Part shown: positions 45,093-64,000 of the stretch, in pieces
How positions within the stretch are numbered: position 1 is the first letter of the stretch
How the letters are laid out: the number at the start of each line of letters is the position of its first letter
Sequence record: MG589383
DNA from: Shigella phage phi25-307
Direction: 5' to 3' (one strand)
DNA: 64,000 nucleotides
The notes under the pieces: model-generated
Told to the model about the DNA's origin: nothing
Database searches by the model: none
Seen by the model: only the letters and a program-made list of their open reading frames with translations
Made by a program: the position numbers and the translations under genes

Positions 45093-45124
45093 AACGTTTT
45101 ATTCATTCCACTTAATTGATAGGA

Positions 45125-45589: not shown

Positions 45590-45672
45590 AGTCTTTACCC
45601 TTATGTTTTTGTTTGCGTTTAGATTGAAGTTCTGATTTCTTCTTGTCCTTATGGACGGAAGCCTTATTGAAA

Positions 45673-46418: not shown

Positions 46419-46744
46419 TTAAACCATTCCTTAATACGTTGCCAAATAGATTTTTGTGCTTGTTTATTTACACCAATCGAACGAATAACTGGTTGTGACT
46501 GCTGATATTCTTTATAATCTTCTTTATAGATTTCGTAAGCGGCATCAACAAATGAACTGATCGCTGCCATGTAGTTTTTACGAAGGCCGAATGGTGCGTC
46601 ATTATTTTCACGAATAACCATATATTGGCCTGCTTTAATCTTTACAATTGTCCCTAAATAAGCCCCGTGGTACCAAATATCCCATCCTTCCTGAGTAGGT
46701 TCTGCACATTTACGAAGTTCGTTAATAATATTCAGCTTATTCAT
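46415..46744 (-). CDS. hypothetical protein (109 aa)
   Basis: ORF in asiA-motA early block. Confidence 0.45.
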
Positions 46745-46754
46745 TATGTATTCC

Positions 46755-47387: not shown

Positions 47388-47424
47388 TTTATTTCTCCAA
47401 TTTGGTTGTTTTGTTTTGATAGGT

Positions 47425-47456
47425 CTATAATATCATGTTTGAAGCACATGTAAACT
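47425..47456 (-). promoter_or_regulatory. T4-type early promoter upstream of motA
   Basis: Minus-strand TTTACATGTGCTTCAAACATGATATTAT. Confidence 0.5.
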
Positions 47457-47475
47457 GTTTTGTGAGAAAAATGCA

Positions 47476-47496
47476 CAAAAGGGAGCCGAAGCTCCC
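47476..47496 (-). terminator. terminator downstream of gene 52 (GGGAGC-UUCG-GCUCCC, U-tract)
   Basis: Minus-strand hairpin followed by TTTTGTG; upstream of motA promoter. Confidence 0.55.
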
Positions 47497-47572
47497 TAAT
47501 CGTGTTTGTCCAACCAATACAGCCAAATCACTAGTGCAGCTATTGCACCGAGAAATCCTAAGGCTAGGGCAC

Positions 47573-48898
47573 TCAAAGTGCCTCCAAGTCTTTAGTGTAC
47601 TCTGTCACAACATCAGTAGACTTCCAATACTCATTTTCTTCTTTCTTAGCTTTAGCTTCTTCTGCCAGTTTACGTGCTTCGTCGGAAGTGATATGGAAGA
47701 TGTTAAGGCCTACCAGTTTATCGACATGTTCTTTATACATTTCGATTTGTGCTAGCTCTTCAGTCAAAGCTTTACGAGTCTTGCCCTGAATCACAATTTC
47801 GCCACTGATAACTTTTTTGATGAAGTGTGCCTTAGCAAAAGCCAGTTTAAATGCTTTTTCAGATTCAAGGATTTTGTTGTCAATACGTTTCTGAACGTAA
47901 GTCTTACGGACTTCAACAAAATCTTTGATTAAGTCCACTACGTTATCATAGACGGCTAATTTACCCTTTTCATTAATCACTGTGATGTTTTGTGAACGAC
48001 GTTCGATGAGACTAAAATCTTTCATGATTTTTTCATGACGTAGCTCTTCATCATCAGGAAGCGAGTACTCTTTACGGAACTTCACCTTAAACCCAAAGCC
48101 GTGTTCACCACAATCATCTTCCCATGAGATTAGACCTTTGTCTTCCAATGGGTCAAGAACCTTACTCACATACGTTTCACGGTCGAATTTATATGGGATT
48201 TCAGTTATCTGCATTTGAGTGCGAGATGTGAACTTATATGTTCCGTGAATCTCATAACGCCCATCAACTTCGTGTACTTCACCACGGAATTCCGGGAATT
48301 CAACTTTTGGCTTAGTGACATTTTTACCTTGAAGAGCTTGTAATACGGCCTTTTTTACCGATTTAAAACTATGAGGCAGAATATTTGTTGCGTAACCGGT
48401 TGCAATACCAGAGACACCATTCAAAAGAACTGTCGGAATAATAGGAAGATAGAATTTTGGTGGAATGTGTTCTTTATCTTCATGGGCTGGAGCATATTCA
48501 GTATCTTTATATACGTTATAGAAATTTTTACTTACACGAGCAAAAATATAACGAGATGCTGCAGCTTTTTGGACTGTTCGAGAACCAAAGTTGCCTTGGC
48601 CATCTAACAGTGGATAGTTGTTGTTCCATGTGTTAGCCATCAATGCACCTGCATCTTGTGCAGAAGATTCACCATGGTGATAACCTAAATCTGCAACACC
48701 GCCTGCAATTGACGCAAGTTTATGAAATTTTTCTTTATTACCACGAGCCAAATCTAACGCACGATGAACCACAAAACGTTGAACCGGCTTAAATCCATCA
48801 ATCATGTTTGGGATTGCACGGTTTTCAACGGTGTACATCGCGTATGCTAAGGCTTCGTTATCAATAATACTTTTTAGATTACGAGAATTCAATTGCAT
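47573..48898 (-). CDS. 52: DNA topoisomerase II medium subunit gp52 (GyrA-like, 441 aa)
   Basis: Size (T4 442 aa), synteny, GyrA/ParC-type N-terminal region with putative catalytic Tyr; not searched. Confidence 0.9.
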   Translation of the reverse strand: MQLNSRNLKSIIDNEALAYAMYTVENRAIPNMIDGFKPVQRFVVHRALDLARGNKEKFHKLASIAGGVADLGYHHGESSAQDAGALMANTWNNNYPLLDGQGNFGSRTVQKAAASRYIFARVSKNFYNVYKDTEYAPAHEDKEHIPPKFYLPIIPTVLLNGVSGIATGYATNILPHSFKSVKKAVLQALQGKNVTKPKVEFPEFRGEVHEVDGRYEIHGTYKFTSRTQMQITEIPYKFDRETYVSKVLDPLEDKGLISWEDDCGEHGFGFKVKFRKEYSLPDDEELRHEKIMKDFSLIERRSQNITVINEKGKLAVYDNVVDLIKDFVEVRKTYVQKRIDNKILESEKAFKLAFAKAHFIKKVISGEIVIQGKTRKALTEELAQIEMYKEHVDKLVGLNIFHITSDEARKLAEEAKAKKEENEYWKSTDVVTEYTKDLEAL

Positions 48899-48902
48899 AT
48901 TT

Positions 48903-49043
48903 TCACCATATTAATGAACGAATAGCCATTATAACATCTGAAATGAAAAGCACTACTTGGATTAGCCCAAACATCACACCATAGTACAGAACCGTAAGCA
49001 ACAACAAGAGCCCGAAGGCTCCTGCTAAGATTTTCTTAATCAT
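48903..49043 (-). CDS. small hydrophobic membrane peptide (46 aa; not in ORF track)
   Basis: Hand-translated MIKKILAGAFGLLLLLTVLYYGVMFGLIQVVLFISDVIMAIRSLIW; stop 4 nt before gene 52 ATG; start overlaps upstream peptide stop (ATGATTAA). Confidence 0.4.
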   Translation of the reverse strand: MIKKILAGAFGLLLLLTVLYYGVMFGLIQVVLFISDVIMAIRSLIW

Positions 49044-49188
49044 TACTCGCCTTTAATACGTTAAAAAGAGCTAAGACCGCTAAGGTACCTTGTGACACAG
49101 CCTGTTGAAATACTGTTGTTTCGCCTGTAACTAAAGTGTTAACGAATAAAAACGACCAACACAGCAATGCAATAATCCATGCTACCAT
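49036..49188 (-). CDS. small membrane protein (50 aa; not in ORF track), candidate ac-like
   Basis: Hand-translated MVAWIIALLCWSFLFVNTLVTGETTVFQQAVSQGTLAVLALFNVLKASND; SD GAGGT upstream; T4 ac is a 51-aa membrane protein in this position. Confidence 0.4.
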   Translation of the reverse strand: MVAWIIALLCWSFLFVNTLVTGETTVFQQAVSQGTLAVLALFNVLKASND

Positions 49189-49240
49189 TTTAATTACCTC
49201 AAAAATAAATTAAAGGCCTAGCTTAATAGGCCTGTATAAA

Positions 49241-49687
49241 TTAGTAACTCTGCAGAATGAATTTGAAGTTATCAGCCAGAAGACGGTTCATTTCAGTGAG
49301 TGTTTGATATTCTGATGTATGGTTGCGAGTGAATGCCAGAGCCAATTGACCTTTACCGTAACCAGTAGTCAGGGGTTTCATGTTCTTAGCTGCAACAAAG
49401 ATTACATCATATTCAATATTGTTAGTGCCCATGGTACGGGCTAGTTGCGAACGGCCTTGACGAATGTGAGAAAGAATTGCATCTAACCCTTGTTTAGAAC
49501 GTTGACGTCCTACAAAGAATCGTGCTGCTACTTGACGCCAATCAGATGAACCTTTAACAAAGAAGTAAAAACCTTCACGAGAACGAAACTCTTTAGAAAC
49601 TTCAGAACCGTATTCGCCATTACGAACTACTGCAACAACTTCACCGCCAACTGCCAGAAGGTCTTTACGAGTTAAATATTTGGACAT
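49241..49687 (-). CDS. ndd: nucleoid disruption protein Ndd (148 aa)
   Basis: Collinear with T4 Ndd ([71 protein letters not shown]). Confidence 0.9.
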
Positions 49688-49727
49688 GCTAATTTCCTCA
49701 ATTGATTAATGATTTTATTATCCAATG

Positions 49728-49762
49728 AGAGCATTATACTCTGCTCTCAAGAGTTTGTACAA
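49728..49762 (-). promoter_or_regulatory. early promoter upstream of ndd with palindrome GAGAGCAGAGTATAATGCTCTC over the -10
   Basis: -10 TATAAT inside an inverted repeat; near-identical cassette at 21218-21250. Confidence 0.45.
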
Positions 49763-49764
49763 TT

Positions 49765-49965
49765 TTATTCGGCTATATCAGAACGTTCAAAAAGCTCTTC
49801 AACAGTTAAACATTCGGTGTCGTCCTCAATAAAGAATCGAGTCCAACACGTTGGGGCGATACAGTTATGAGTTTGTCCGGCGATAGAAGCTACACGAATA
49901 AGCTGCTGACCATTATTCAGAACAAATTTTTCACCAATTTCAACATCTTTAAAAAGCTTAGCCAT
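49765..49965 (-). CDS. hypothetical protein (66 aa)
   Basis: ORF with early promoter upstream (about 49995-50030). Confidence 0.45.
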   Translation of the reverse strand: MAKLFKDVEIGEKFVLNNGQQLIRVASIAGQTHNCIAPTCWTRFFIEDDTECLTVEELFERSDIAE

Positions 49966-50215
49966 TTTGTGTTCCTCATGTTTCAGTAGGACTACTATAC
50001 CATAATCCTACCTTGATGTAAACAATTAAATTACATTAAAATATGTTAAAGCCAACCATGTTCCAGTGAACGAACATACGATGTAAAAACCCGTATCACA
50101 AATTGTTCTTAGTACAATAAGAAGCGCATTTTTCATAAGTACCTCAATGCAATTGAAAATATTATACAAATCATAGGGATACTAAGCAACCATATTCCGA
50201 TCCACATTTTAGAGC

Positions 50216-50479
50216 TCATATCTCAACTTCCGCGAGTTCCATATATCCTTTGTTGATAACCTCTTTAAGGTCTTTAGAAAGAATAACACTAAAATGGTCG
50301 TTCATATGTCCATTAACTAAACGAGTTATTTCTGCTTCAGATGACATATAAGGCACGTCTGAGTCCCAATGAGATAGACTCAAATGGGTATAAATCATCC
50401 CTTCGTCATCTGCGGTGTTGTACATTGAAACAAATTCGCCTGTTACTTTATGTTTTGCGTAGAAAAATTTAAATTTCAT
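50216..50479 (-). CDS. hypothetical protein (87 aa)
   Basis: ORF with palindromic early promoter upstream (50495-50535). Confidence 0.45.
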   Translation of the reverse strand: MKFKFFYAKHKVTGEFVSMYNTADDEGMIYTHLSLSHWDSDVPYMSSEAEITRLVNGHMNDHFSVILSKDLKEVINKGYMELAEVEI

Positions 50480-50547
50480 GATGTTATCCTCTTTTAGATA
50501 GGACTACTATATCATAGTCCTACTTAGTTGTAAACACTTTTATGAAA

Positions 50548-51105
50548 TTAAAGATGAAGATACCACCCGTTGTAGTTGCTCTTGCGGACGATTTTCTTTA
50601 GGTCTTCATGGTCTCCCACGAACTTTATAGAATAAGAGAAGACGTCAGGTGAGGTTTCTTTGACATCTAATATAATAATGCAATCTGCGACTCGATGGTT
50701 CAAGAAGGGCCCTATATTGATTCCATTACCACCCGGATAATCACCACTGTATCCTGTGGTAACCGAAATCCATTTAGAATCTATCTGGTGTGTCTTGACT
50801 TCTACACGAATTCCACAATACTTGGGATGGGCTAACACGTCCCATGCATACGTGTACGGGTCTTCTACGTCTTCAATACCTTTATTAACATATCCGTCTA
50901 GCCAATTTGCTACTACATACTCTGCAAAGACCGCAACCTTACAACGTCGAACTACGTCTTCTTTTATTTGACCTGGATCTTGTTTCAACGAGTACCGAGC
51001 AGTGTCAGCAATCTTCACCTTCATTTCACTAGTCAAAAACTCATTCGACAGGATAAATGTCGGAAGATTCTTCAGTCTCAACAGTCCCAAGTTCGTCTTT
51101 ACCAT
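50548..51105 (-). CDS. denB: endonuclease IV-like protein (185 aa; start at internal ATG 51105)
   Basis: Position between ndd block and rIIB; 185 aa as T4 DenB when started at ATG 51105, which has SD GAGG 5 nt upstream; identity by synteny and size only. Confidence 0.6.
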   Translation of the reverse strand: MVKTNLGLLRLKNLPTFILSNEFLTSEMKVKIADTARYSLKQDPGQIKEDVVRRCKVAVFAEYVVANWLDGYVNKGIEDVEDPYTYAWDVLAHPKYCGIRVEVKTHQIDSKWISVTTGYSGDYPGGNGINIGPFLNHRVADCIIILDVKETSPDVFSYSIKFVGDHEDLKKIVRKSNYNGWYLHL

Positions 51106-51328
51106 AGATACCTCTGATGTGTAGTTCGCCAAAATAAATGCGGTCACCTTCTTCAAGATATTCTGCATCTACAGGCGGAATTTCAATAACAACTTCGTCA
51201 CATTCTAACCAGCCGTAGTGTGCATCGCCAGGATGTTTTACCAATTTAGCACAATAAACTGATTTACACTTATGATGACCACGAAGATTAGCAATTTTGG
51301 ATTCTGATACGTCAAATGGATGAATCAT
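51041..51328 (-). CDS. hypothetical protein (95 aa; start at internal ATG 51328) overlapping denB start
   Basis: ORF with SD AGGGG 6 nt upstream of ATG 51328; overlaps the denB-like ORF by 64 nt in another frame. Confidence 0.4.
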   Translation of the reverse strand: MIHPFDVSESKIANLRGHHKCKSVYCAKLVKHPGDAHYGWLECDEVVIEIPPVDAEYLEEGDRIYFGELHIRGIYGKDELGTVETEESSDIYPVE

Positions 51329-51340
51329 AATTACCCCTAA

Positions 51341-51366
51341 AGAAAAAAAAGGGGACCGAAGTCCCC
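51341..51366 (-). terminator. rIIB terminator (GGGGAC-UUCG-GUCCCC, U8 tract)
   Basis: Hairpin begins 6 nt after rIIB stop; followed by TTTTTTTTCTTT on the minus strand. Confidence 0.7.
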
Positions 51367-51371
51367 AATTA

Positions 51372-52307
51372 TTATTCTGCAAATAATTCAGTAACGTCTG
51401 AAATTACTTCATAACGACAAGTACGCATCTTAGCATCACCATAGTCAACTGGGATAGATACAACATCACGTGGATGAACTTTAACCTTAACAACTTTATC
51501 TGAGCTAGAACCAAAGTAACGAATATATGATTTAGCACAAACATGTAGACCACGGGAACAAGTTTGTGTATCATCATCGTTAACACGAGTACGAGGCATT
51601 GAAACAACTTTACCAGGCGAGTTATCAAATGTGCCACTATAGCAATCTAAATAGTCTTTACGAACTACTTTCCACGCATAGAAATGCCCATCTTCAGTGA
51701 TTTCAATATCGTTTGCAACCAAGAAGTCGAATAAACGTTGTACAGCTTTTTCGCTTGGGTTTTCTAACAGGTTTTCAAGGAACGGCAGATAGAATTTAAA
51801 GTCTTCGCCTTTTTCCATGGAATCAATAATACGATTAACCAGTCCTGAACGAATTTCTATACCTTGATAAAATAAACTACCACCTTCAATAGTAACATTA
51901 CCGTCAACAAACTTAGTAATAGCTTTCTTGATGTTAATAAGTTCGACAGCTTTACTAAGGTTTCCTGCGACCAAATTGGCTTTAATTTCTTCAAAATTTG
52001 CATGACTTGTTGGGGTCGCATTGTATGCTACGCGTCCTTCAATGATTGAAATAAATTTAGATGACGCGTTCCATACGATTTCTGGACGATGACCTGTAAT
52101 AATAGGTTCATTATTTTCTGGGACCTGTTCTTCGTCTTCAAATTCAGCTGCTTTCTCTTCAGCTTTAAAATTCTTAACAATCTTACGAAGAGTATCTGTT
52201 GAAATGCCGAAGTAATCGGCAATTTCTTTACGAGTCCATTTGCCTGATTCAACCAGGCCGTAAGCTTCTAACTGTTCTTCTTGGGACAAGCATTTAATAT
52301 TGTACAT
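51372..52307 (-). CDS. rIIB: rapid-lysis / Rex-exclusion protein rIIB (311 aa)
   Basis: Collinear with T4 rIIB (MYNIKCL, IEGGSLFYQ.IE.RSGLV.RI.DSMEKGE.F.FY.PFLENLLENPS.KAV.RLFDFLVANDIEITEDG.FYAWKVVR, SRGLHVC.KSYI, VKVKVHPRDVVSIP.DY.DAKMRTC.YEV). Confidence 0.94.
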   Translation of the reverse strand: MYNIKCLSQEEQLEAYGLVESGKWTRKEIADYFGISTDTLRKIVKNFKAEEKAAEFEDEEQVPENNEPIITGHRPEIVWNASSKFISIIEGRVAYNATPTSHANFEEIKANLVAGNLSKAVELINIKKAITKFVDGNVTIEGGSLFYQGIEIRSGLVNRIIDSMEKGEDFKFYLPFLENLLENPSEKAVQRLFDFLVANDIEITEDGHFYAWKVVRKDYLDCYSGTFDNSPGKVVSMPRTRVNDDDTQTCSRGLHVCAKSYIRYFGSSSDKVVKVKVHPRDVVSIPVDYGDAKMRTCRYEVISDVTELFAE

Positions 52308-52316
52308 AATGTTTCC

Positions 52317-54530
52317 TTATTTGGCCGCTTCCACGGCCTTCATGAATTTAACGATTTGAGCGACCTGTTCTTTGGAAAGAGTACCACGTCGTCCCATGTA
52401 TTCTGACACAATATGATAATTGGTTTCGAATTCAATAACCATTTTATCATCATTATCGTAAGCATTATCTTTAAGCTTATCGAAAATTTTAGCACACAAT
52501 TCTAACTTCTTATTCAGGTCTGTATTAGTAGCACCTGCGAATCGATTCCATCCCCAACGATTATTTACTGTTGAGAGTTTTGCAAAGTCTTTACTGATTT
52601 CTTTGTTCTTAGAGCTAAAATACTTACTAAGGAAGTTAAGCTCTTCGTTACGAGTAATATGATTCAAATAAGGCTGTGCTCTACGACTTGGTGATACATA
52701 CTCATCATAATCCACTTTGTCAATTAGCGTAATATAGTCATTAATTGATTTTTCGAACAAGCATTCTACTTCACCAAGTTTACGAACTTTCTTAGCAATC
52801 TGTGGACGGACTACAGTGAACTCTTTAATACCTGACAAATCAGCAATACGAGTCAAGAAACTAGAATCATAGTTCAACCAACCTTTATCTGCGTCAAGAC
52901 ATTCGGCGTTAGAACGATTACGAATTACAACATAACCTTGAATCTCATCGGCTTTACCGGCCGGAATAAAGAGATCTTCTGATACCCAAACATCGTTTTC
53001 ATTCTTAAAGAACCGATGAGCACTTGGGGATTTAGGACGAGGCTGCGATGAACGTTCTTTAACTTCAATCCACGGTTTAACTAATGCAAGAATTTCAGAG
53101 GTCTTATAAAATTTAAGGCTATCACCAGCGAAAATAACCTTTAATCGTTCTAGAAGTTTCATTGCAACTTCATCTTCCGGATTAACGAATAATACGCTAC
53201 TACCCCATCCGGAAGGAACCTTATCAACGAGTGTTGATGCATCGGTGGAAGTCAAAGCATCGTTCAGAGCACGCATCATTGGTACGCGGCCTTTCACATC
53301 GTCAATAACAATATCAATATGCTTACGACTAATACCTAGCAGGCTATTAATTGAAATAGTTGAAGACGAGCTTCCGCTTTCACGAATACGACGAAGTCGT
53401 GGATCTGAAACGATATCGTATACAACACCAAGGTTGCACCATTCAGGTCCCATTTTAAACCGTTTGTACAACTCAGAATAAGTTAGCTGTTCTTTAGAAT
53501 ATTTCAGTGATTCAATATTAGAACCGGCTTTTTCCATGTATTTACGAGCAGAGTAACCAAGAGAATCGATTTCACGGAATACATGACGTGGATATTCACA
53601 ATCAATCCATTTCTTAGAATCTTCAGCAAATAATTTTGCATCGATTTCTGCAACACGTTTATGGATATTTGCTACTGTACGTTTATCAAATGACAATGCT
53701 TCACGAGACGGGGCTACATCTAGTTCACCCATAGGGAATTTAATATAAGCTGTAGTGCATCGCGTCATCATCCATGTTTGTTCTTTAATAACACTTCCGA
53801 TTGGATATACAATACCACCATAAACAGCCATGATATTACCACGTTCACCCCATGGAGCTTCCTTGGCTAAATAAACATCATCGAATTCCGGGAAGTATTT
53901 GATATCTTTAACACCACGAACTTCTGCAATATCGCCGAGAGGACGCATAACATATGCAATTTCAGATGCGAACTTTTCAAAATCTTCTGGGTTAACCGGT
54001 ACAACTACTTCTACACCCGTACGGTCATCAGGGCCCATCTTATCTACAAAGGTTGGCTTAATCTGTGGACCGCTGTCATCTTGATAAATTACATAACCAC
54101 GAACTTCACCGTTGTGATAAGACGTAAGGTTAAACGTATCGGTATACGCTAGTGGAGCTTTAGAGCCGAGTCCGAATCCACCAATGAAATCGTTACTCGA
54201 TGTTTTAGTTGAAGCAAAATATGAATTATAGATTCCTGGCTCTTCGTCATTACCTCGAATGGTGAAATCACTCATACCAGGACCAAAGTCTCGAACTACA
54301 AAACGTGGGTCTAAACGACCTGGAGCCTGAACAATAAACTTATCAGTGCAACCATTAAGAATTTGACCATCGATACAGTTTGTGATTAATTCGCGTACAC
54401 AAGCCAATTCTTTGTTTGTATAAAGGTCATTAGACAAAATCTTATAAACTTTGCTATTGCCTTGAATAGTAAATGCTGTGCTCTTATCGCCTGAACCAAT
54501 AATCGTTTCTTTAGCCGTTTCAATAATCAT
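52317..54530 (-). CDS. rIIA: rIIA protein (737 aa)
   Basis: Collinear with T4 rIIA (CVRELITN, GRLDPRFV.RDFGPGMSDF, DFIGGFGLGSK, GPQIKPTFV, IYGGIVYPI). Confidence 0.93.
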   Translation of the reverse strand: MIIETAKETIIGSGDKSTAFTIQGNSKVYKILSNDLYTNKELACVRELITNCIDGQILNGCTDKFIVQAPGRLDPRFVVRDFGPGMSDFTIRGNDEEPGIYNSYFASTKTSSNDFIGGFGLGSKAPLAYTDTFNLTSYHNGEVRGYVIYQDDSGPQIKPTFVDKMGPDDRTGVEVVVPVNPEDFEKFASEIAYVMRPLGDIAEVRGVKDIKYFPEFDDVYLAKEAPWGERGNIMAVYGGIVYPIGSVIKEQTWMMTRCTTAYIKFPMGELDVAPSREALSFDKRTVANIHKRVAEIDAKLFAEDSKKWIDCEYPRHVFREIDSLGYSARKYMEKAGSNIESLKYSKEQLTYSELYKRFKMGPEWCNLGVVYDIVSDPRLRRIRESGSSSSTISINSLLGISRKHIDIVIDDVKGRVPMMRALNDALTSTDASTLVDKVPSGWGSSVLFVNPEDEVAMKLLERLKVIFAGDSLKFYKTSEILALVKPWIEVKERSSQPRPKSPSAHRFFKNENDVWVSEDLFIPAGKADEIQGYVVIRNRSNAECLDADKGWLNYDSSFLTRIADLSGIKEFTVVRPQIAKKVRKLGEVECLFEKSINDYITLIDKVDYDEYVSPSRRAQPYLNHITRNEELNFLSKYFSSKNKEISKDFAKLSTVNNRWGWNRFAGATNTDLNKKLELCAKIFDKLKDNAYDNDDKMVIEFETNYHIVSEYMGRRGTLSKEQVAQIVKFMKAVEAAK

Positions 54531-54542
54531 ATTTTTCTCTCA

Positions 54543-54743
54543 TCACAAGTTACGTTTAAAAATTTCTGCTACTTCAAGAAGTTCTTCTTTAGTAGCTGTA
54601 TCGGTTTGTATTTTATATCGAATTTCCTTAAAGCGTTCTTTAAAGGCTTCAGCTGATTCGATATCAAAAAATCTTTGGATAAGCCGGAATTCCCGGAGCA
54701 CAGCTTTATCAAAAAGTTCCAAGTCCACGTTATATGTTCTCAT
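54543..54743 (-). CDS. hypothetical protein rIIA.1-like (66 aa)
   Basis: ORF immediately upstream of rIIA; SD GAAGAGAAT. Confidence 0.5.
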   Translation of the reverse strand: MRTYNVDLELFDKAVLREFRLIQRFFDIESAEAFKERFKEIRYKIQTDTATKEELLEVAEIFKRNL

Positions 54744-54835
54744 AATATTCTCTTCAGTAGATTCCTAGGGCACTATTACTAAAGACCATATAATCTATCA
54801 TCTTATGTGTAATAGTGCCTCAGGCTATTCAGGAT

Positions 54836-55936
54836 TTACGCTGTGAAGATTTTATCCCACATCGCAACAACTGCATCTCGGTTATACTTCTTCCATACTG
54901 CTTCAGCACGTTTAACTCGAGCTTCGTATGTATCAGTGAATTCTAATACAGCTTTTGTGTAAAGCGCAACTACTTCTTTCTTAGGAGTAGAGGAATCAAT
55001 TTCTACACGCACAGTATCTGGGTCGTATTCAAATGTCGCATGAGGATAATCCTTAAAAACTAACTGGATTACAGGGACACCTTTAGAGATGGCTTCAATA
55101 GAACTATTCTCTACCGTACCTGTGTCAGGACATGTATTAATAAGTGCTTTAGCTGTTTTAAGACGTTCCATGATTTCACTGTGTGGAGCATCAATAATAA
55201 CAGGATATTTAGCTGGTGGTGCCCATTTGCTTGGACAGTATCCTACACCATTTTCGCCTAGTGCTTTAATCGCTTCAAGAGCAACATCAGTACGACGCAT
55301 TTTAGTGTCATAACGTTGTGCACTAATAATCAGATCAGTCGCCGGAAGAACTTCAGGTTTCTCATTCAAACAAATAACCGGATAATCTTCGGCTTCAAAC
55401 AACGGATTTGCTCGCCAATAATCATAATCAATTTTGTCAGTCAGAGCTGAAGTCATATGGCAATATTTACGTTCAAATTCACGGAAGGCTTTAGTAGGAG
55501 CATAACTCTTACCGCCATTCTTATGAATTTGAATAGTCTGGTCCCAAATTTGAACAATGCCACGAGATACCGGTTCAAATGGTGTTGCCATAAAATTCTT
55601 ATGAACTTTAGAGAGACCTGCGTCTTTAATTGCCTGAACGGTTAGTTTAGTCGGTTCCATAGTAACAACAAAATCGTATTCATGGATGCCGGCTAGTTCA
55701 ACAATCTTACGAGCCATAGTATAACTCATACCTAGACTGAATTTAGTCAGATGACCAACAGGATGGTGTGTAACTTTCCAGTCACCAAACGTGTCATTAT
55801 CAAAGCCGATATAATCAATATCAGCACCAATGGACACAAGATATTTCAACACATTTAAATGTACTGCTTCAAGGCCACCTTGTACACGGTCAGGATTAAA
55901 TGGGACTGCACGAGATGGGATAAACATAACTTTCAT
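54836..55936 (-). CDS. GT-B fold glycosyltransferase, GT4-like (366 aa); candidate DNA-hmC sugar transferase
   Basis: N-terminal GG.E motif (RVQGGLEAVHLNVLKYL) and C-terminal GT4 donor-binding signature (ENSSIEAISKGVPVIQ); position between rIIA.1 and gene 39. Confidence 0.6.
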   Translation of the reverse strand: MKVMFIPSRAVPFNPDRVQGGLEAVHLNVLKYLVSIGADIDYIGFDNDTFGDWKVTHHPVGHLTKFSLGMSYTMARKIVELAGIHEYDFVVTMEPTKLTVQAIKDAGLSKVHKNFMATPFEPVSRGIVQIWDQTIQIHKNGGKSYAPTKAFREFERKYCHMTSALTDKIDYDYWRANPLFEAEDYPVICLNEKPEVLPATDLIISAQRYDTKMRRTDVALEAIKALGENGVGYCPSKWAPPAKYPVIIDAPHSEIMERLKTAKALINTCPDTGTVENSSIEAISKGVPVIQLVFKDYPHATFEYDPDTVRVEIDSSTPKKEVVALYTKAVLEFTDTYEARVKRAEAVWKKYNRDAVVAMWDKIFTA

Positions 55937-55978
55937 AATTAAGCCTTATTAAAATTAAAATGAAGCTCCCGAAGGAGC

Positions 55979-56791
55979 TTAGGACATCCAACACATTTTA
56001 TAACCTTTGCAGGTTCTGTTAGGATTATTTAATGCTTTCAATATATTAGAAGACCCTATATCTAAATACTCCCTTAATTCATAAAGATAGTTAAAATCAA
56101 TAGTTTCACCTGTTTTTACACTTGTGATTCTTATAGGCCTTCTTTCATATTTAGATTTATACAACTCTCTAGTCTTAGCTTTAGTTTCTTCTGACCTAGG
56201 AGTGTATGGTTTAAATCCTTTTGTTTTAAATGTTTCCATTCTTGATTTAGTTATTTTATCCTGGTGTTCTTTTGTTTTTACAGGTGCTTTTCGCCCATTC
56301 TCCCAAGATAACTTGTTGGCCTGTATTATTTTATCTATTGCTTCTTGCGTATGAGTTTTACCATAAAATGGATTTAATTCGCCTATACGTTGTGAAGCAA
56401 TATGTGACATTAATTCTCTTGTTGCTTTAGTATGTTTTTTACCTTTAAATGGGTTGCCATTTTTAGCAATCCATTCTTTCATAAATCTAGAGTGCTCTTT
56501 AGAGAATTCTTGTTTAAGCCAATCATAATCTCTAGAATTTCTAGCTCCCATGTAAAAAGCTCTAATAGCCATAAGCATAGAACGGTTCTTATGAATTTTA
56601 TAAAGCAATAAATGGGCGATAAAATGCTCTCTAGGGGTCATTTTAACTAGATTTGATTTAGCATTACTCCCACCCATAGATTTAGGCAAAATATGGTGAG
56701 TTTCAGTATAATTAGGAATAGTGCTGCGGTTTTTAGCCGCAGCGATAAGTTTATCATAAATTTTACGATAATTCATTATCCTAGCATCCAA
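55979..56791 (-). CDS. free-standing HNH homing endonuclease, Mob-like (270 aa)
   Basis: HNH core (TETHHILPKSMGGSNAKSNLVKMTPREHFIAH) plus repeated NUMOD-like DNA-binding modules (NPFKGKKHT, NPFYGKTHT); overlaps 3-prime end of gene 39 by 16 nt. Confidence 0.8.
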   Translation of the reverse strand: MDARIMNYRKIYDKLIAAAKNRSTIPNYTETHHILPKSMGGSNAKSNLVKMTPREHFIAHLLLYKIHKNRSMLMAIRAFYMGARNSRDYDWLKQEFSKEHSRFMKEWIAKNGNPFKGKKHTKATRELMSHIASQRIGELNPFYGKTHTQEAIDKIIQANKLSWENGRKAPVKTKEHQDKITKSRMETFKTKGFKPYTPRSEETKAKTRELYKSKYERRPIRITSVKTGETIDFNYLYELREYLDIGSSNILKALNNPNRTCKGYKMCWMS

Positions 56792-58596
56792 TCTTTACGG
56801 AGTTCAGGGTCGTTACCCATGAGCATTTCAAATAGTTCTTTCCAATTTTCAGGAAGTTTAACTACGTCGTACACAGGGTTTTGAATCATTTCTTTATATT
56901 CATCCCGCTGAAGTGAGCCCAATCCCTTGATGTATCGAATACTATGCTTAGGCAGTGTATCTTTGGCTTCTTCATACTCAGCTACAGTATAAAACCATTT
57001 TTGAGTTTTGCCAATTTGTGCAATAATTACAGGCGTTTTAACAAAGCGAATACGTCCTTGTTCAAACAATTCAGGCCAATTACTAAAGAAAGCAAGCAAA
57101 GCCGGATAAATACTTCCAAGACCGTCATGATCGGCATCGGTCATAATTGCAATATTACGATAGTTCGTATTCTCTGCCTTTTCACCAAGAATAAGACCTG
57201 TGATAGCACAGATATCAAAGAGCTCTTTGTTCTTCATCATATCAGCATATGACATACCCCAGCTATTCATCACCTTACCACGTAATGGGAATCCACCGTG
57301 TAGTTCACGGTCACGAACATCAATGAGATAACCAATTGCCGAATCACCTTCTGTTAAAAACAATGTCGTATCTGCATCTTTACCACATTGGTTAGCTTTA
57401 ATATGCTTATGAACCTTAGCTTTAGTTGCCTTTTTAGCTGCTTTAGTTTCTGCAGCCTTTTCTGCTGCCAATTTACGAGCTAATGCTGCTTCAACAATAG
57501 GCATAATCAAAGCTTCATTTTTAAGAAGTGCCTGAGCAATTTTCTTAGCATCTAATTGGATATGATTACGAATATCACCATACGTTGACGTTAAACGTTC
57601 TTTAGTCTGAGAATCAAAACGCATGTTGCTCATGTCTCTAATAAACATCAACATTGTGAGGCATTCTTTAACACGAGCTTTAGTGACTTCAATACCCTTA
57701 TATTTCTTTTTAATACCGGGCAAAAGATGTTCGCAGATATCATCCATTACACATTCAACATGATGACCACCATTTTTAGTATGGATGTTATTCACATAAG
57801 TTAAATGACGGAAGCCATCTGGTGATGTTGTGAATGCTATAGAGACTTTATCATTTTCTTGAATGATGTTATCTTCGCCAAATTGTTTAGCAAATCGTTT
57901 AAAATTACCATCAACCTTTTTACCATTAAATGTGAACTTGATATCAGGATAAACGACTGCCAATGTTTGAAGACGGTCTAAAGTAATATCTAAATAAATT
58001 TGAGATAAATTATGCTCTTCAAATGAAGAGAAATCAGGAGTGAAGATTACTTTAGTGCCTTTACCTTTAGATTTCTTAGAAGACCATGATTTGTTTTCCA
58101 TTCCGTTTGAACAGTTAACAGTGATTTCATTTTCGCCATCTGACGTGATGCCTGTAAACAACGTAGAGAAGATATTAGTTAAACTACTCCCGACGCCGTT
58201 CATACCACCAGTCTTGCGTTCAGAGTCATCACCAAAGTTACCACCGGCCTTTGGAATAGTCCAGGCCGCTACAGGCCCAGGAATTTGTTCACCTGTTTGG
58301 TCGGTAACTAAACCTTGAGGAATACCACGTCCGTTATCTTCCACTGAGACTTGATTATTTTTAATTTGCACATCAATTTTATTTGCAAACTTAAATGATG
58401 TACGAATAGCTTCATCAACCGAGTTGTCAATAATCTCATCGATTAATTTAACAAGACCAGGAACATATTCAACTTGTTGATATTTACCAAACAAAAAACG
58501 CTCATGGGCTTCTTTAGCCGAAGAACCAATATACATGCCACTGCGTTTCTTAATATGTTCTACATCTGACAATACCTTAATTTCATTTTTAATCAT
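56776..58596 (-). CDS. 39: DNA topoisomerase II large subunit, fused 39+60 type (606 aa)
   Basis: GHKL ATPase N-terminus collinear with T4 gp39 and Toprim C-terminus collinear with T4 gp60 (AIMTDADHDGLGSIYP.LL.FFSNWPELFEQGRIRFVKTPVIIAQ) in one uninterrupted frame. Confidence 0.93.
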   Translation of the reverse strand: MIKNEIKVLSDVEHIKKRSGMYIGSSAKEAHERFLFGKYQQVEYVPGLVKLIDEIIDNSVDEAIRTSFKFANKIDVQIKNNQVSVEDNGRGIPQGLVTDQTGEQIPGPVAAWTIPKAGGNFGDDSERKTGGMNGVGSSLTNIFSTLFTGITSDGENEITVNCSNGMENKSWSSKKSKGKGTKVIFTPDFSSFEEHNLSQIYLDITLDRLQTLAVVYPDIKFTFNGKKVDGNFKRFAKQFGEDNIIQENDKVSIAFTTSPDGFRHLTYVNNIHTKNGGHHVECVMDDICEHLLPGIKKKYKGIEVTKARVKECLTMLMFIRDMSNMRFDSQTKERLTSTYGDIRNHIQLDAKKIAQALLKNEALIMPIVEAALARKLAAEKAAETKAAKKATKAKVHKHIKANQCGKDADTTLFLTEGDSAIGYLIDVRDRELHGGFPLRGKVMNSWGMSYADMMKNKELFDICAITGLILGEKAENTNYRNIAIMTDADHDGLGSIYPALLAFFSNWPELFEQGRIRFVKTPVIIAQIGKTQKWFYTVAEYEEAKDTLPKHSIRYIKGLGSLQRDEYKEMIQNPVYDVVKLPENWKELFEMLMGNDPELRKDWMLG

Positions 58597-58641
58597 GTTG
58601 TCTCCTCGTTATGAAGGTATTCTATCATCCGAAATCTAAAG

Positions 58642-58660
58642 CAAAAAGGGCCGAAGCCCT
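58642..58660 (-). terminator. terminator (GGGC-UUCG-GCCC, U-tract) upstream of gene 39
   Basis: Minus-strand hairpin followed by TTTTTGC; abuts stop of ORF 58660-59085. Confidence 0.5.
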
Positions 58661-59085
58661 TATTTAAATTTAATTTTCTGAAGTGCATCAATTGCAGCCA
58701 AACGCCCTTGTTCACTTTTAACTGTAATGACCACATCGCCTGATACGATCACCGAACCATCAACAAATTCTATAGAGCCTTTTTTGAAATCGACAGATGT
58801 ATCTGGTTCCGGAACTTCTTCAAAGAATTTAAATTCTGCACCATAAAGCAGAATATCACCTTGCATACTATGAATAGTTCGGCCATAATCGCCTACGGCT
58901 TCTACAGCAATCACAGAAACGCCGTAACCAATCATCTCTTCCACAATAAAATCTTTGGACAATAAAGTAGTATGCAGATTAGTATTAAGACGTTTACCAG
59001 TCGTATTAAGAATTCTCAAGAAATTATCTTCCTGTCCTTTGATAATACGATATTTCTTACCAACTTCAAAACCTTTAAAAGCCAT
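58660..59085 (-). CDS. hypothetical protein (141 aa)
   Basis: ORF; terminator hairpin at its 3-prime end. Confidence 0.5.
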   Translation of the reverse strand: MAFKGFEVGKKYRIIKGQEDNFLRILNTTGKRLNTNLHTTLLSKDFIVEEMIGYGVSVIAVEAVGDYGRTIHSMQGDILLYGAEFKFFEEVPEPDTSVDFKKGSIEFVDGSVIVSGDVVITVKSEQGRLAAIDALQKIKFK

Positions 59086-59123
59086 AATTAACCCTTCTTA
59101 AGTAAGTCGTAAAAACCACCGTT

Positions 59124-59267
59124 CACATGTTTAGGAGCAGAAACCCGACGAGTAGACAAACGATGACATTCAGGGCAAACATCGTTTTCTCGTTCAGAAA
59201 TTCTTTTAATTTTTTCATATTCATGACCACAATCTTCAGATTGGCATTTATAGTCGTATAACGGCAT
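59124..59267 (-). CDS. small Cys-containing membrane-anchored peptide (47 aa; not in ORF track)
   Basis: Hand-translated MPLYDYKCQSEDCGHDMKKLKEFLNEKTMFALNVIVCLLVGFLLLNM; SD AAGGA upstream. Confidence 0.3.
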
Positions 59268-59269
59268 TA

Positions 59270-59698
59270 TTATTCCTTAAAATGTGCTTTCAACATTTGA
59301 TACAAAGACCATGCCTGGTCGTTATTTTCGATAGTAATCGTCATCACCGGAAATTCAGACAATTCGTCAAGTTCACCAGAATCTTGCTCTTCGGACGCTT
59401 GATATGGATTTTCAACTTCGTCAAAGAACTCTGCTTCATTCGTGGAGAGCCAGATAAAGTTTTCATCAAGGATATCACCGCCTGTTGCGTATCCAACCGT
59501 GCCAGTAGATGTCACAATTTTAGTAGGACGGCCAAGATGGTCAACATCTAATACTTTAAATGGTTCCATGCCAAGACGTCGTGCATAAATCCCATTATCA
59601 GTGTGGTCTTTAATAAACTCTTCTTGGGCACGTTTATCTATAAATTGGTACCATGAGTTAACGCGGAATTTATTAGCCATTAGTAAGTTTCCTTCCAA
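59270..59698 (-). CDS. hypothetical protein (142 aa)
   Basis: ORF. Confidence 0.5.
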
Positions 59699-59907
59699 TA
59701 AGTTGTACCGTTTTCAGTGATTTCACGGAAGATACCATAGATAGGCATTTCATCACCGAGTTTTTCGTAAACGTAAATCACTTCTGTGTAGCATAAAAAT
59801 TCGGTCCAGTTTTTCTGTACAACAACTAAATCAGGATTAAACAGAACATCTTCAAACTCATCGATGTTTGAATCAGTAGTTACGTTTTTAATGATTTGGC
59901 GTTTCAT
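59680..59907 (-). CDS. hypothetical protein (75 aa; start at internal ATG 59907)
   Basis: SD GAGGAG upstream of ATG 59907 and early promoter at 59933-59962 argue against the longer ORF-track start. Confidence 0.45.
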
Positions 59908-59968
59908 AATATTCTCCTCTTGTTTTGATAGGTCTATAGTAACACATCTAGAGGAGAAGTAAACAACT

Positions 59969-60388
59969 TTATGCAAAAGATGCTGGACAATATTTTTTGA
60001 TTTGGAACTCAGGAACTACCATGAACTGTCCAGCGAAAACGATGTTATAAAGCTTAACACCATCTTCTACCCAACGGTCGCTAATAAATCCGGCGATTTG
60101 CTTAGTTTTCCACGGCGTTCCATCGGTTCCCGCAGCAATAGTGAATTCATGGTCTTTTACAACTAAAACAGACCTGCACAGTTTCCATTTGAACGCTTTT
60201 TCTTCTGGCTCAATGAATTGGCTTGAGACGTAGCCAATGTTGCCATCGGCGTCACGAACTTTAACTTGATGTGGACTAAAGAGTCCACAACTTACAGAAA
60301 GAACTTCAACCAACTTCCCGGCAACTTTAGAGCGAGAAGCAACAGATACATATACGTAATCACCTGTAGAGAGATTTACAATATTCAT
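59969..60388 (-). CDS. hypothetical protein, tandem paralogue A (139 aa)
   Basis: Shares ASRSK.AG.LVEV, FKW.LC and GFISD.WVEDG.KLYNIVF.G.F.VV motifs with the adjacent upstream gene. Confidence 0.55.
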   Translation of the reverse strand: MNIVNLSTGDYVYVSVASRSKVAGKLVEVLSVSCGLFSPHQVKVRDADGNIGYVSSQFIEPEEKAFKWKLCRSVLVVKDHEFTIAAGTDGTPWKTKQIAGFISDRWVEDGVKLYNIVFAGQFMVVPEFQIKKYCPASFA

Positions 60389-60397
60389 AATAATTCC

Positions 60398-60853
60398 TTA
60401 AGCTTTACGAGGAGACACATAGCGAGTGATTTCAGATTCTTTAACAACTCGGAAGTCACCTAAGAATACGATATTGTATAACTTTTCACCATCTTCAACC
60501 CATTGGTCACTAATGAAGCCACACATAGTATCAGTTTTGCTTGGATAACCGTATTCGTCGATGTAATCAAATTCTTTATCGGTTATAAATTCAACGCCTT
60601 TGCAAAGGGCCCATTTGAACTGTACATTAGGTTCAGTAGAAGCAAAATGAGCACTCACATGAGTTTCCAGGAATTTAGGACTTACGTAAGCGTACTGAGT
60701 ATCCTGACGTCCAAAACTAGGAATGATTCGAACTTTAACTTCTTTAATACGTCCCATGCCATTTGTGCGAAGTCCGACAACTTCAACCAGACGACCTGCG
60801 GCTTTAGACCGGGATGCAGTTGATACACGCTTAATTTCACCAATAGTAATCAT
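60398..60853 (-). CDS. hypothetical protein, tandem paralogue B (151 aa; start at internal ATG 60853)
   Basis: Paralogue of 59969-60388; early promoter 60866-60907 and SD upstream of ATG 60853. Confidence 0.55.
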   Translation of the reverse strand: MITIGEIKRVSTASRSKAAGRLVEVVGLRTNGMGRIKEVKVRIIPSFGRQDTQYAYVSPKFLETHVSAHFASTEPNVQFKWALCKGVEFITDKEFDYIDEYGYPSKTDTMCGFISDQWVEDGEKLYNIVFLGDFRVVKESEITRYVSPRKA

Positions 60854-60918
60854 AATTTTTCTCTCTTTGTTTAAGTTGAATTCATTATACTCCATCCATC
60901 CTTGGATGTAAACTGGTT

Positions 60919-61596
60919 TTATCGCTGTTTTACACTTAACGGGTCAGGATTTTCAGGGACATCTTCAAGGCCAAGCGCATAACGCTGAGCATATTTTAAC
61001 ATCAAAATATCTTTAGCACAATCATGAATACTATCATGGGCAACGAATCCTTTTAACGTACCCAACGGTAATGGACACATACTTAATCCTCGTGTCAACG
61101 AGTAAGCTTCGATTGCCGTACGAATATCGCGTTGAGCCCAGAATTTAACCGGTTCTAATTTATCAGTATCAATCTCTGGTTCAGGAACACCTTCATCACG
61201 ATAGAGGTCACGAATCAAATCGACTAATATCGGGAAGTCAAAGCTCATACCACGGCACCACATCTGTGATTTCCATTGGTCAACTTTATTAGCTCGACAA
61301 TAATCTAAAAAGATTTTAATGCCTTCAAGCGTAGTGACATCGTCTTCAGACGGAGCCAAGTTTTTACGTGCTTCAGCCGATTGTTCTTTCCACCATTTCA
61401 TAGTGGATTTAGCGAAAACTCGCTTCCCTTTCTGAGAAGCTAAATTAAATTTAATTCGTTTACCTCGTTGAACAAGTTCTTCAAATGATTCAACAACTTC
61501 AGGGTCGGAATTATATGCAATAACCGCAAGGTCAATAACAGCCGCTTTTGATGTATTGCCGAATGTTTCAAAATCTATAATAACATCAGTGCTCAT
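60919..61596 (-). CDS. dexA: exonuclease A, DEDD family (225 aa)
   Basis: DEDD exonuclease motif I (IIDFETFG) and later H/D motif; size and synteny with T4 DexA. Confidence 0.88.
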   Translation of the reverse strand: MSTDVIIDFETFGNTSKAAVIDLAVIAYNSDPEVVESFEELVQRGKRIKFNLASQKGKRVFAKSTMKWWKEQSAEARKNLAPSEDDVTTLEGIKIFLDYCRANKVDQWKSQMWCRGMSFDFPILVDLIRDLYRDEGVPEPEIDTDKLEPVKFWAQRDIRTAIEAYSLTRGLSMCPLPLGTLKGFVAHDSIHDCAKDILMLKYAQRYALGLEDVPENPDPLSVKQR

Positions 61597-61605
61597 AATT
61601 TTCTC

Positions 61606-62919
61606 TCAAATAAAATGGACGTCAAACCGGCCACGAGTTGTGCCGACATACAATAACTGTTTAGCTAATTCTGAATCGGCATAATGGATACACGGTGTAT
61701 AAACAAAGGCCGTGTCAACAGACATACCCTGGGCCTTATGGAAGGTTGATACTGGTAGTGCCTTCACCTTAGTGAACATACGTTTAGCATCCCAGAATTC
61801 GCTCCATGGAGCTTTACCACCTTTATTCCAAAATTTGTATGTTTCTGCGGTCTTAGCCAAAAACAAATTGAATTTATAAAGCTCTTCTTCAGAAGAAATA
61901 ACCTTTATATCTTCGCGGATGTATTCTTCATCATCCCCATATGTTTCTACTGTAAGATTCCAGTATCGTATCATATATTCGCCCGAAACACCACGTGCTT
62001 TAACGAATGTAGACGTTTCTACAGCATCTCTAATACGAACGAATTGGCCGTTATTGAAAAGCATTTCGGTAATATTTTTACCATCTAGCTTATATGTCTT
62101 AGTAAATGGCTCCTGTAGAACAATGACTTCGTCTTTAATAAATGGTTTTTCTGTTTCAAGAAGTTTTCGTCGAATAATTGAATTTAACTTGTCCACCGAC
62201 TTATTTGTGAATGCCATCATTCGATTTTCGAAAAGGTCTTCAGGAGTTTTAACGACGTTAAAATAGTTCATCATATACGATTTAAGGTCTGTATATCCGT
62301 GAACACCATGTCCATCAACTACTTTATCGTAAATCCATTTGCCATTACGAATATCAGTAGCAACATCAATAATTGGTGCATTGCTACGTTTAACTTCTGT
62401 AAGGTTGCATTGCACGAAGTCTTTGTGAGTGAAGAAAGGACTTAGATACGCAGTTGATTCGCCTGGGTCTACCGGACGAATCTGGCATCGGTCGCCGATG
62501 CCAATTACTGTACACCATTTAGGGATACTAGCTAACATTATTTTAAACAGAGAACGGTCGCACATTGACGCTTCATCAAATAACAGTACACGGCACAAGG
62601 CTAGGTCTGGAACCTTTTTCTGTTCAAACAATACGTTTTCTTCGTATGTAGTTGGGTTGATTTTAAGAATGCTATGAATAGTCGATGCTTCTTGTCCCGC
62701 AAGTTTACTTAGAACCTTTTTAGCGGCATGTGTAGGGGCTGCTAAAATAATACCTGATTCTCCAGAAGAAATAAGGGCTTCAACGATGAATCTAGTAAGG
62801 GTTGTTTTACCTGTACCAGCAGGCCCATTAATAGTTACGTGATGTTTCTTTTCTTTAATAGCGTTCATAACAACGTTGAAGGCGTTTTTCTGGCCTTCAG
62901 TCAAATCATCAAATGTCAT
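61606..62919 (-). CDS. dda: Dda DNA helicase, SF1B (437 aa)
   Basis: Collinear with T4 Dda (MTFDDLTEGQKNAFN.VM.AIKEKKHHVTINGPAGTGKTTLT, STFHKAQGMSVD.AF.YTPCIHYAD). Confidence 0.94.
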   Translation of the reverse strand: MTFDDLTEGQKNAFNVVMNAIKEKKHHVTINGPAGTGKTTLTRFIVEALISSGESGIILAAPTHAAKKVLSKLAGQEASTIHSILKINPTTYEENVLFEQKKVPDLALCRVLLFDEASMCDRSLFKIMLASIPKWCTVIGIGDRCQIRPVDPGESTAYLSPFFTHKDFVQCNLTEVKRSNAPIIDVATDIRNGKWIYDKVVDGHGVHGYTDLKSYMMNYFNVVKTPEDLFENRMMAFTNKSVDKLNSIIRRKLLETEKPFIKDEVIVLQEPFTKTYKLDGKNITEMLFNNGQFVRIRDAVETSTFVKARGVSGEYMIRYWNLTVETYGDDEEYIREDIKVISSEEELYKFNLFLAKTAETYKFWNKGGKAPWSEFWDAKRMFTKVKALPVSTFHKAQGMSVDTAFVYTPCIHYADSELAKQLLYVGTTRGRFDVHFI

Positions 62920-63227
62920 CGTAAAGTCCCTGCAATTGGAATACTAACAATACGGCCTGTATCCAGGATTCGTTGATACAATTTTTGCGTCTCCGCATCT
63001 AGTTTAACGTGTTTCATTTCAAGCTTATTAAACCAGAACTTACGCGGAGTTTCGACCATTCTTAGAACTCCCATTTTTAAATCTGTTTTATACTGTGTTT
63101 TCAAAGTATCGAAAACTTTATCTGCAATATCCTTTCTAAAAAATACTGCAGGACGATGCTCATCAAGTGGAACCGGGACAGTAAATCCTTCCATATCTCG
63201 ATAAACTATTGCATATACATAAACCAT
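62916..63227 (-). CDS. hypothetical protein dda.1-like (103 aa)
   Basis: ORF overlapping dda start by 4 nt. Confidence 0.5.
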   Translation of the reverse strand: MVYVYAIVYRDMEGFTVPVPLDEHRPAVFFRKDIADKVFDTLKTQYKTDLKMGVLRMVETPRKFWFNKLEMKHVKLDAETQKLYQRILDTGRIVSIPIAGTLR

Positions 63228-63229
63228 AA

Positions 63230-63976
63230 TTAACCTTTAATCAGTTGGAATAATGATGCGCTAAGTGGTAAGCCACGTTTCAATTTTAATTTACCAATGA
63301 AACCGATCTTTTCAAAACGTTGCAGACCTTGGATAACTTTATCATATGTATCGAAAAGCGATTCAGCGTCAGTTAATTTAGTTTTAGTTTTCCAGTCAGA
63401 GCCTTTAAGAAGAACGTTGAGTTTAGTAAGTTCATGGCCTTCTGCTTGATGCGAGCCATTAATGCGTGCTTTCAAAGCAACAATTCTAAGTTTAGCTTCG
63501 TCAGATAAAGGTTGATTTTTCATCATGTTCGCCATATGCTTAACACGATTTTCACGTTTTGCTCGGATTTTTAAAATGGTATCATAAACCTTTTTAATTT
63601 GGGCCCATTTCTTCTCGTCGAGATTAAGTTTCTCTACTTTACGGGCGGAAGGATTAGCGATACGTCTTGCAATAGCGTCACGTTTCTCAATAAGTTCTTC
63701 TAATGTTAAATCAGAACGAGCCGTGTTATATTTTTTCTTAACTGGGATAACATTACCTTTAATGTAACCGATATCGTTATTAAAACGTTCTAAGGATAAT
63801 TTCTCACCTTCAACAGAGTTATTGAAAGATTCACCTGAGTAAGCGCAGACCTTTTGATCAAGAATGTTTTTAAGGTAATTAAAGTCTAAGTTAAAATCCT
63901 TAGAGCGTCTCTTCGCAGAAGCTCTGGTGTGGTCAAGACGACGATTGATTTTGTTAATTTTATTATTTGATAACAT
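63230..63976 (-). CDS. srd: Srd-like protein (248 aa)
   Basis: Size and position downstream of dda as T4 srd; identity by synteny only. Confidence 0.55.
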   Translation of the reverse strand: MLSNNKINKINRRLDHTRASAKRRSKDFNLDFNYLKNILDQKVCAYSGESFNNSVEGEKLSLERFNNDIGYIKGNVIPVKKKYNTARSDLTLEELIEKRDAIARRIANPSARKVEKLNLDEKKWAQIKKVYDTILKIRAKRENRVKHMANMMKNQPLSDEAKLRIVALKARINGSHQAEGHELTKLNVLLKGSDWKTKTKLTDAESLFDTYDKVIQGLQRFEKIGFIGKLKLKRGLPLSASLFQLIKG

Positions 63977-64000
63977 AATATTTTCCTCTGTCTTACGGAC

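Follow-up and report, generated by a model that had tools for sequence, protein, structure and literature searches.

Which sugar does the glycosyltransferase encoded beside rIIA transfer, and onto which acceptor? An earlier note on the 64,000-nucleotide stretch of DNA analysed here (the window) had described a 366-aa open reading frame (ORF) as a GT4-type nucleotide-sugar transferase, a novel candidate for a non-glucosyl DNA sugar transferase in a phage whose DNA probably contains hydroxymethylcytosine (hmC). In this analysis the gene was assigned to the family that includes RB69 ORF003c/gp3 and the glycosyltransferase crystallised from phage HY126, and its product is proposed to be the second (beta) DNA arabinofuranosyltransferase of a pathway that uses 5-hydroxycytosine (5hoC).

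The gene and its neighbourhood

The ORF scan of the window returned a 366-aa frame with an ATG start, occupying exactly 54836..55936 on the minus strand. By codon comparison this ORF is a real gene under purifying selection and not a chance frame, since it differs from RB69 ORF003c at 22 codons synonymously and at only 5 non-synonymously. Proteins with at least 95% identity were found in approximately 154 Escherichia/Shigella phage records of the phage collection, and the GC content of the gene is ordinary for its region. The intergenic region on its 5' side (55937..55980, minus strand) contains a hairpin, a T-rich tail and then a ribosome-binding site, TAAGG at 55948..55944, located 7 nt upstream of the ATG; the whole region is identical in RB69. 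The hairpin itself (AAGCTCC-TTCG-GGAGCTT, 55980..55963 on the minus strand) is a perfect 7-bp stem with a UUCG tetraloop, and could act either as a terminator or as a stabiliser of the upstream transcript. A promoter scan gave sites no more frequent than those in shuffled sequence.

Downstream, the gene is adjoined by rIIA.1 (54543..54743, minus strand; Pfam T4_RIIA1, E 3.7e-30) and, further on, by rIIA (52317..54530), so that this half of the previously described position between rIIA.1 and topoisomerase stands. The other half needs amending, as an HNH/NUMOD3 homing endonuclease ORF (55979..56791, minus strand) separates the glycosyltransferase gene from the topoisomerase subunit gene, which is of the fused gp60plus39 type (56776..58596, minus strand). 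In RB69, by contrast, the gp3 gene abuts gp60plus39 directly. The earlier statement that T4 has no counterpart at this locus was correct: the T4 order is rIIA - rIIA.1 - 60 - 60.1 - mobA - 39, and the glycosyltransferase gene is absent between rIIA.1 and 39.

The endonuclease ORF is present in Escherichia phage SQ17 and absent in RB69, and shares 16 nt with the 3' end of the topoisomerase gene. The last codons and stop of the endonuclease ORF (..WMS*, TGGATGTCCTAA) correspond to the ancestral 3' end of RB69 gp60plus39, and gp39 in the window has another C-terminus (..DWMLG), indicating that the insertion point was just within the topoisomerase gene, at its 3' end. Elsewhere in the window, td (28105..28965, minus strand) is a single unbroken ORF of 286 aa, a gene annotated in SQ17 as two pieces split by a homing endonuclease gene.

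Protein identity, fold and motifs

A PDB sequence search matched the protein to entries 9IQZ and 9IR0 (release 2025-07-16) at 365/366 identical residues, the sole substitution being S315 in the window, where the HY126 protein has Phe. The entries are titled as the phage HY126 glycosyltransferase and the same protein with UDP, respectively, and the title of 9IR0 implies that the HY126 enzyme binds UDP. With a deposited crystal structure available, the description of the protein as a novel candidate is outdated. He et al. 2026 (Nat Chem Biol) reportedly characterised the HY126 pathway and are probably the source of both structures. The window protein is also identical at 361/366 residues to RB69 ORF003c/gp3 (NP_861693), which is encoded at the same locus, its coordinates matching with respect to rIIA and rIIA.1 and its upstream hairpin and ribosome-binding site being identical as well. 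The question of orthology to the RB69-group novel transferase, left open in the earlier note, is thereby answered in the affirmative.

The AF2 model of the 366-aa protein (pLDDT 90.7) has a GT-B fold, and structure comparison identified retaining GT4/GT5 enzymes as its closest neighbours, bearing out the reading of a GT-B nucleotide-sugar transferase with GT4-like relatives. The substrates of these neighbours are lipids, LPS, small molecules and glucans, and CAZy GT4 and neighbouring enzymes (BshA, PimA, MshA, WaaG, sucrose-phosphate synthase, BH4 glucosyltransferase) share just 10-15% identity with the window protein. Family models were far less informative. PHROG 8302, labelled 'unknown function', matches residues 1-366 (E 2.5e-222), but Pfam yielded no match at E<=1 and no glycosyltransferase family at E<=10; the Glycos_transf_1 (PF00534) and Glyco_trans_4-like N-terminal models gave no match, and NCBIfam holds no family for it. 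Across 11 family members, the lone glycosyltransferase signal was one weak match to PF20706 (GT4-conflict, E 0.0028). The HMM and structure searches that had been suggested thus recovered a glycosyltransferase fold and the RB69-group orthology, with no match to a GT4 family HMM.

Homologue searches returned few relatives. A word-indexed search gave 5 clusters, or 10 with a profile, and an exhaustive HMMER search with a 6-sequence alignment retrieved only 11 relatives among 1.84 billion representatives; none of these searches provided a bridge from this family to bacterial GT4 sequences. The likeness to GT4 therefore rests on structure, and the hallmarks claimed for it at the sequence level were undetectable in Pfam and NCBIfam. 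As judged from these searches, the gp3/HY126 family is small and isolated. Direct sequence comparison of the window protein with the T4 alpha-glucosyltransferase (a-gt; GT72, 1Y6F/1XV5), the T4 beta-glucosyltransferase (b-gt; GT63) and the glycosyltransferase of the phage sugar cluster (cluster GT, see below) likewise produced nothing significant.

Two motifs had been put forward as hallmarks, and one of them was retained. The GGLEAV codons (residues 20-25; 55862..55879, minus strand) encode an N-terminal glycine-rich loop in which G20, G21 and L22 are invariant in 11/11 family members. The C-terminal E-x7-E signature was not found in the C-domain; the single E-x7-E in the whole protein is E86..E94, in the N-terminal domain. 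What the C-domain contains is a loop-helix segment, ENSSIEAISKGVPVIQ (residues 276-291; 55064..55111, minus strand), in which the conserved E276 and E281 are spaced E-x4-E and where, in the predicted model, helix 277-284 follows strand 264-267. By analogy with GT4 active sites, the GG loop (20-21), R208/R214, K263, E276 and E281 are candidate donor-binding residues, and the GG loop may take part in donor or acceptor binding. The window protein thus differs from GT4 enzymes, for which E-x7-E is canonical, in its E-x4-E spacing, in its lack of a Glycos_transf_1 or Glyco_trans_4 match and in its acceptor, putatively a sugar on DNA.

Chemistry of the modified cytosine and genome context

Arabinose in RB69 DNA was reported by Thomas et al. 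2018 (PMC6024577), who proposed ORF003c as the 'ara-hmC' arabinosyltransferase; the earlier expectation of a sugar other than glucose agrees with that report. The base has since been revised. Using MS/MS and NMR, Lee et al. 2026 (PMC13326640) found RB69 cytosines to be 5hoC with an attached alpha-D-Araf that is in most cases lengthened to beta-D-Araf-(1->3)-alpha-D-Araf, with no methylene bridge, and attributed 5-hydroxy-dCMP synthesis to a flavin-dependent thymidylate-synthase homologue, gp48, in which an Asn serves as the predictor of 5-hydroxy-dCMP (5hodCMP) synthases. The same authors proposed gp46:47, from the sugar cluster, as transferase 1 and gp3 as 'beta-arabinosyltransferase 2', the latter marked as proposed and not experimentally confirmed, and only tentatively called the Peptidase_U32 protein (RB69 gp50) a 'sugar or heterocycle reductase'. 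In their in vitro assays, DLP3 gp76 and gp77 jointly added a third arabinose to RB69 DNA with UDP-Araf as donor, and DNA containing only 5hoC was not modified by any single glycosyltransferase (PMC13326640). The Durham-collection paper (PMC13390438) also regards the hmC assignment as erroneous and gives mono- to diarabinosyl-dC in Mosigvirus NP as 1:4. According to the part of PMC13216743 that cites Mahler et al. 2025, such enzymes were named Aat, and Aat deletion sensitised Bas46 to a plasmid-borne defence. The Thanatos paper reported only UDP-xylose pyrophosphorylase activity for a cluster protein with a glycosyltransferase fold; this result was set aside, as it has no bearing on the gp3-type enzyme.

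By its sequence matches, the source of the window is a mosaic Mosigvirus-like phage. SQ17 encodes a protein identical to the window protein, and the window is collinear with it, positions 1..52316 corresponding to SQ17 114106..166457 and 52317..64000 to SQ17 1..12821. Therefore, the sugar module lies outside the window, and the prediction that donor-synthesis genes would be found there holds, with their location provided by SQ17. In the uvsX-gp43 interval, SQ17 encodes a 182-aa kinase-like protein, a 299-aa orthologue of RB69 gp46:47 (the cluster GT), a thymidylate-synthase homologue, a Peptidase_U32-family protein of the arabinosylation module (SQ17 26467..27627), a 128-aa protein, an NTP_transferase-kinase fusion and a SIS-domain isomerase. 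A 5hodCMP synthase, a UDP-arabinose module and the cluster GT accompany a gp3-family member in SQ17, in Acinetobacter phage Maestro and in metagenome contig L011. For the source phage, both the presence of the module and the absence of a-gt and b-gt are read from relatives, with SQ17 as the proxy. In the phage collection, matches to the window were mosaic, the best at 97-99% and none above approximately 99% over long stretches; identity to SQ17 ran from 98% down to 75%, with its minimum in the long-tail-fibre region (window 38109..40514 flagged).

Although the window does contain the T-even nucleotide-metabolism set that had been listed (cd, td, frd and nrdA/B, in synteny with SQ17), this set is not diagnostic of hydroxymethylation. 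The SQ17 thymidylate-synthase homologue, at the gene-42 position, carries Asn where E. coli ThyA has D169 (MRSQN), as does that of Maestro; the same signature position reads MRSND in T4 gp42 and QRSVD in the window td. Searching with T4 a-gt and b-gt by tblastn gave no match with E under 1 in either the window or SQ17, so that the recommended check for these genes came back negative in both, their absence from the whole genome being extrapolated from relatives. Given the arabinose attached directly to 5hoC in RB69 and NP, the Asn signature and the lack of an a-gt or b-gt homologue, the premise of an hmC-phage backbone is unsupported and the phage DNA is probably not hydroxymethylated.

Distribution of the family across phages

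The cluster GT was found in 347 phage records, with hosts in Escherichia, Acinetobacter, Klebsiella, Serratia, Shigella, Enterobacter, Proteus, Yersinia, Edwardsiella, Kosakonia and Providencia. The gp3/HY126 family was found in 210 records, with one copy in Mosigvirus-type coliphages and two adjacent copies in Acinetobacter phages (55 records, at approximately 42% identity). Where both occur, the counts nearly coincide: 154 records with the gp3 family against 152 with the cluster GT among coliphages (at least 95% identity), and 55 against 57 among Acinetobacter phages. One record named Tegunavirus also has a family member. Serratia phage 92A1, which is reported to have arabinosylated 5hodC, encodes the cluster GT and lacks a gp3-family member; therefore, the gp3 family is not needed for the first sugar. 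Additionally, family copy numbers of 0, 1 and 2 track reported arabinose numbers of 1, 2 and 3 in Thanatos, in RB69 and NP, and in DLP3, respectively, the single arabinosyltransferase of Thanatos being of the cluster type (PMC13326640). The family is almost confined to phages for which two or three arabinoses are reported, and this distribution fits the published proposal of gp3 as second transferase.

The position of the gene relative to the sugar cluster varies. In Maestro, two paralogues (077 and 078, equivalent to DLP3 gp76 and gp77) adjoin the kinase and the cluster GT. In contig L011 (373..3019), a divergent member that shares 48% identity with Maestro 078 is flanked by the thymidylate-synthase homologue on one side and the cluster GT on the other, a third arrangement. 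In Mosigvirus and in contig L010, the gp3-type gene is located away from the sugar cluster, the L010 member (3040..4224; 39% identical to Maestro 078) being found beside genes resembling DsbA and ligase in a T4-like phage. Whereas DLP3 has two tandem in-paralogues inside the cluster, both required for the third arabinose, the window phage has one copy, far from the cluster as judged by the SQ17 proxy.

DLP3 gp76 and gp77, the beta-arabinosyltransferases 2/3, are full-length relatives of the window protein with 41-43% identity, and use UDP-Araf to act on arabinosylated DNA (PMC13326640). The two paralogues are 56% identical to each other, so that by sequence identity the window protein is co-orthologous to both. 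Specific orthology to gp77 over gp76 was considered and rejected, gp76 and gp77 being in-paralogues. Since the paralogues are closer to each other than to the window protein, their requirement for a pair may not carry over to the single-copy enzyme.

Sugar donor and acceptor

The favoured reading, which is considered probable, is that the window protein is a soluble, UDP-D-Araf-dependent GT-B enzyme adding a beta-(1->3)-linked D-Araf to alpha-D-Araf-5-hydroxy-dC in duplex DNA. The modified base, which the earlier description implied as acceptor, is probably wrong; the published proposals and the gene distribution favour the first arabinose. The main competing view follows Thomas et al. in making the protein the first, base-proximal arabinosyltransferase, acting on hmC as proposed in 2018 or, as it would now be put, on 5hoC. 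An hmC acceptor is incompatible with the revised chemistry (PMC13326640, PMC13390438). Either version has to account for the approximately 137 records, including that of Serratia 92A1, in which the cluster GT and the remaining module genes are present and the family is absent, for the copy numbers of 0, 1 and 2 that accompany one, two and three arabinoses, and for the inactivity of the DLP3 members, taken singly, on 5hoC DNA (PMC13326640). A base-proximal role is therefore regarded as unlikely.

HX01 and some Acinetobacter phage records annotate the gene as 'DNA alpha-glucosyltransferase'; this label, along with the GT-B fold common to the window protein and T4 alpha-glucosyltransferase, would suggest an a-gt-like enzyme glucosylating hmC. 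However, RB69 DNA has arabinose and not glucose (PMC6024577), the base is 5hoC and not hmC (PMC13326640, PMC13390438), sequence similarity to T4 a-gt and b-gt is undetectable, and the relatives encode a UDP-arabinose module along with an enzyme of the 5hodCMP-synthase type, leaving glucosyltransfer to hmC with almost no probability. An acceptor other than DNA, for example a small molecule, a phage protein or glycans of the host envelope, with co-occurrence of the gene and the DNA pathway by chance, would suit the substrates of the structural neighbours and the remoteness of the gene from the sugar cluster in Mosigvirus and contig L010. The tight linkage to the sugar cluster seen in L011 as well as in Acinetobacter phages, the matching record counts in coliphages and Acinetobacter phages, and the action of the DLP3 paralogues on DNA in vitro (PMC13326640) all argue against it. 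Moreover, the second arabinose of RB69 and NP needs an enzyme, and no other glycosyltransferase candidate has been reported (PMC13326640, PMC13390438). A non-DNA acceptor is accordingly judged very improbable.

Returning to the second-transferase reading, we infer from these lines both that the single-copy enzyme acts at this step and what its regio- and stereochemistry are. The beta linkage reported for the product (PMC13326640) would need a beta (1,2-cis) donor anomer if it is to agree with the retaining-type fold. In the proposed pathway, the thymidylate-synthase homologue, encoded elsewhere in the genome, would make 5-hydroxy-dCMP, which would replace dCMP in replicated DNA, and the phage sugar module would convert ribulose-5-phosphate to UDP-D-arabinofuranose. 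The cluster-encoded glycosyltransferase, of the RB69 gp46:47 type, would then place the first alpha-D-Araf on the 5-hydroxyl, and the window protein, with UDP-Araf as donor, would add another D-Araf at O3 of the arabinose already attached to the DNA. The product, beta-D-Araf-(1->3)-alpha-D-Araf-5-hydroxy-dC, would occupy the majority of cytosines, though not all of them, and the thicker sugar coat could give added protection against DNA-targeting host defences. This differs from the T4 glucosyltransferases, which glucosylate the 5-hydroxymethyl group of hmC directly, in that the window enzyme is part of a 5-hydroxycytosine/arabinose pathway, in which its probable task is to extend a sugar. In a more speculative form of the mechanism, regarded as unlikely, the single-copy Mosigvirus enzyme would differ mechanistically from the Acinetobacter relatives that need a paralogue pair: it would be a GT4-like enzyme that stands alone, possibly as a homo-oligomer, with an unusual E-x4-E donor site, and would read the sugar in the major groove without base flipping, the acceptor being 5hoC, Ara-5hoC or both.

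Implications

The gene and its family, along with a likely role and a crystal structure, were already in the public domain: identification dates from 2018 and reassignment from 2025-2026, and the protein has been crystallised. Public annotations of the gene conflict, including hypothetical protein, glycosyltransferase, DNA alpha-glucosyltransferase, ATP-binding protein and putative hmC-arabinosyltransferase (examples are NC_018855.1 (HX01), PV204681.1 (JQD51) and MZ501056.1), and most of them are wrong or outdated given the current chemistry. For the window, the value of this analysis is a correct annotation and the caution that 'T4-like means hmC' should not be assumed for RB69-type phages. 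Arabinosylated 5-hydroxycytosine, a hypermodification clarified only recently, protects phage DNA from DNA glycosylases, restriction enzymes and some CRISPR-Cas systems. It has consequences for the engineering and therapeutic use of phages and for nanopore sequencing. The gene described here is one of the two glycosyltransferases of this pathway in Mosigvirus, common therapeutic and biocontrol coliphages.
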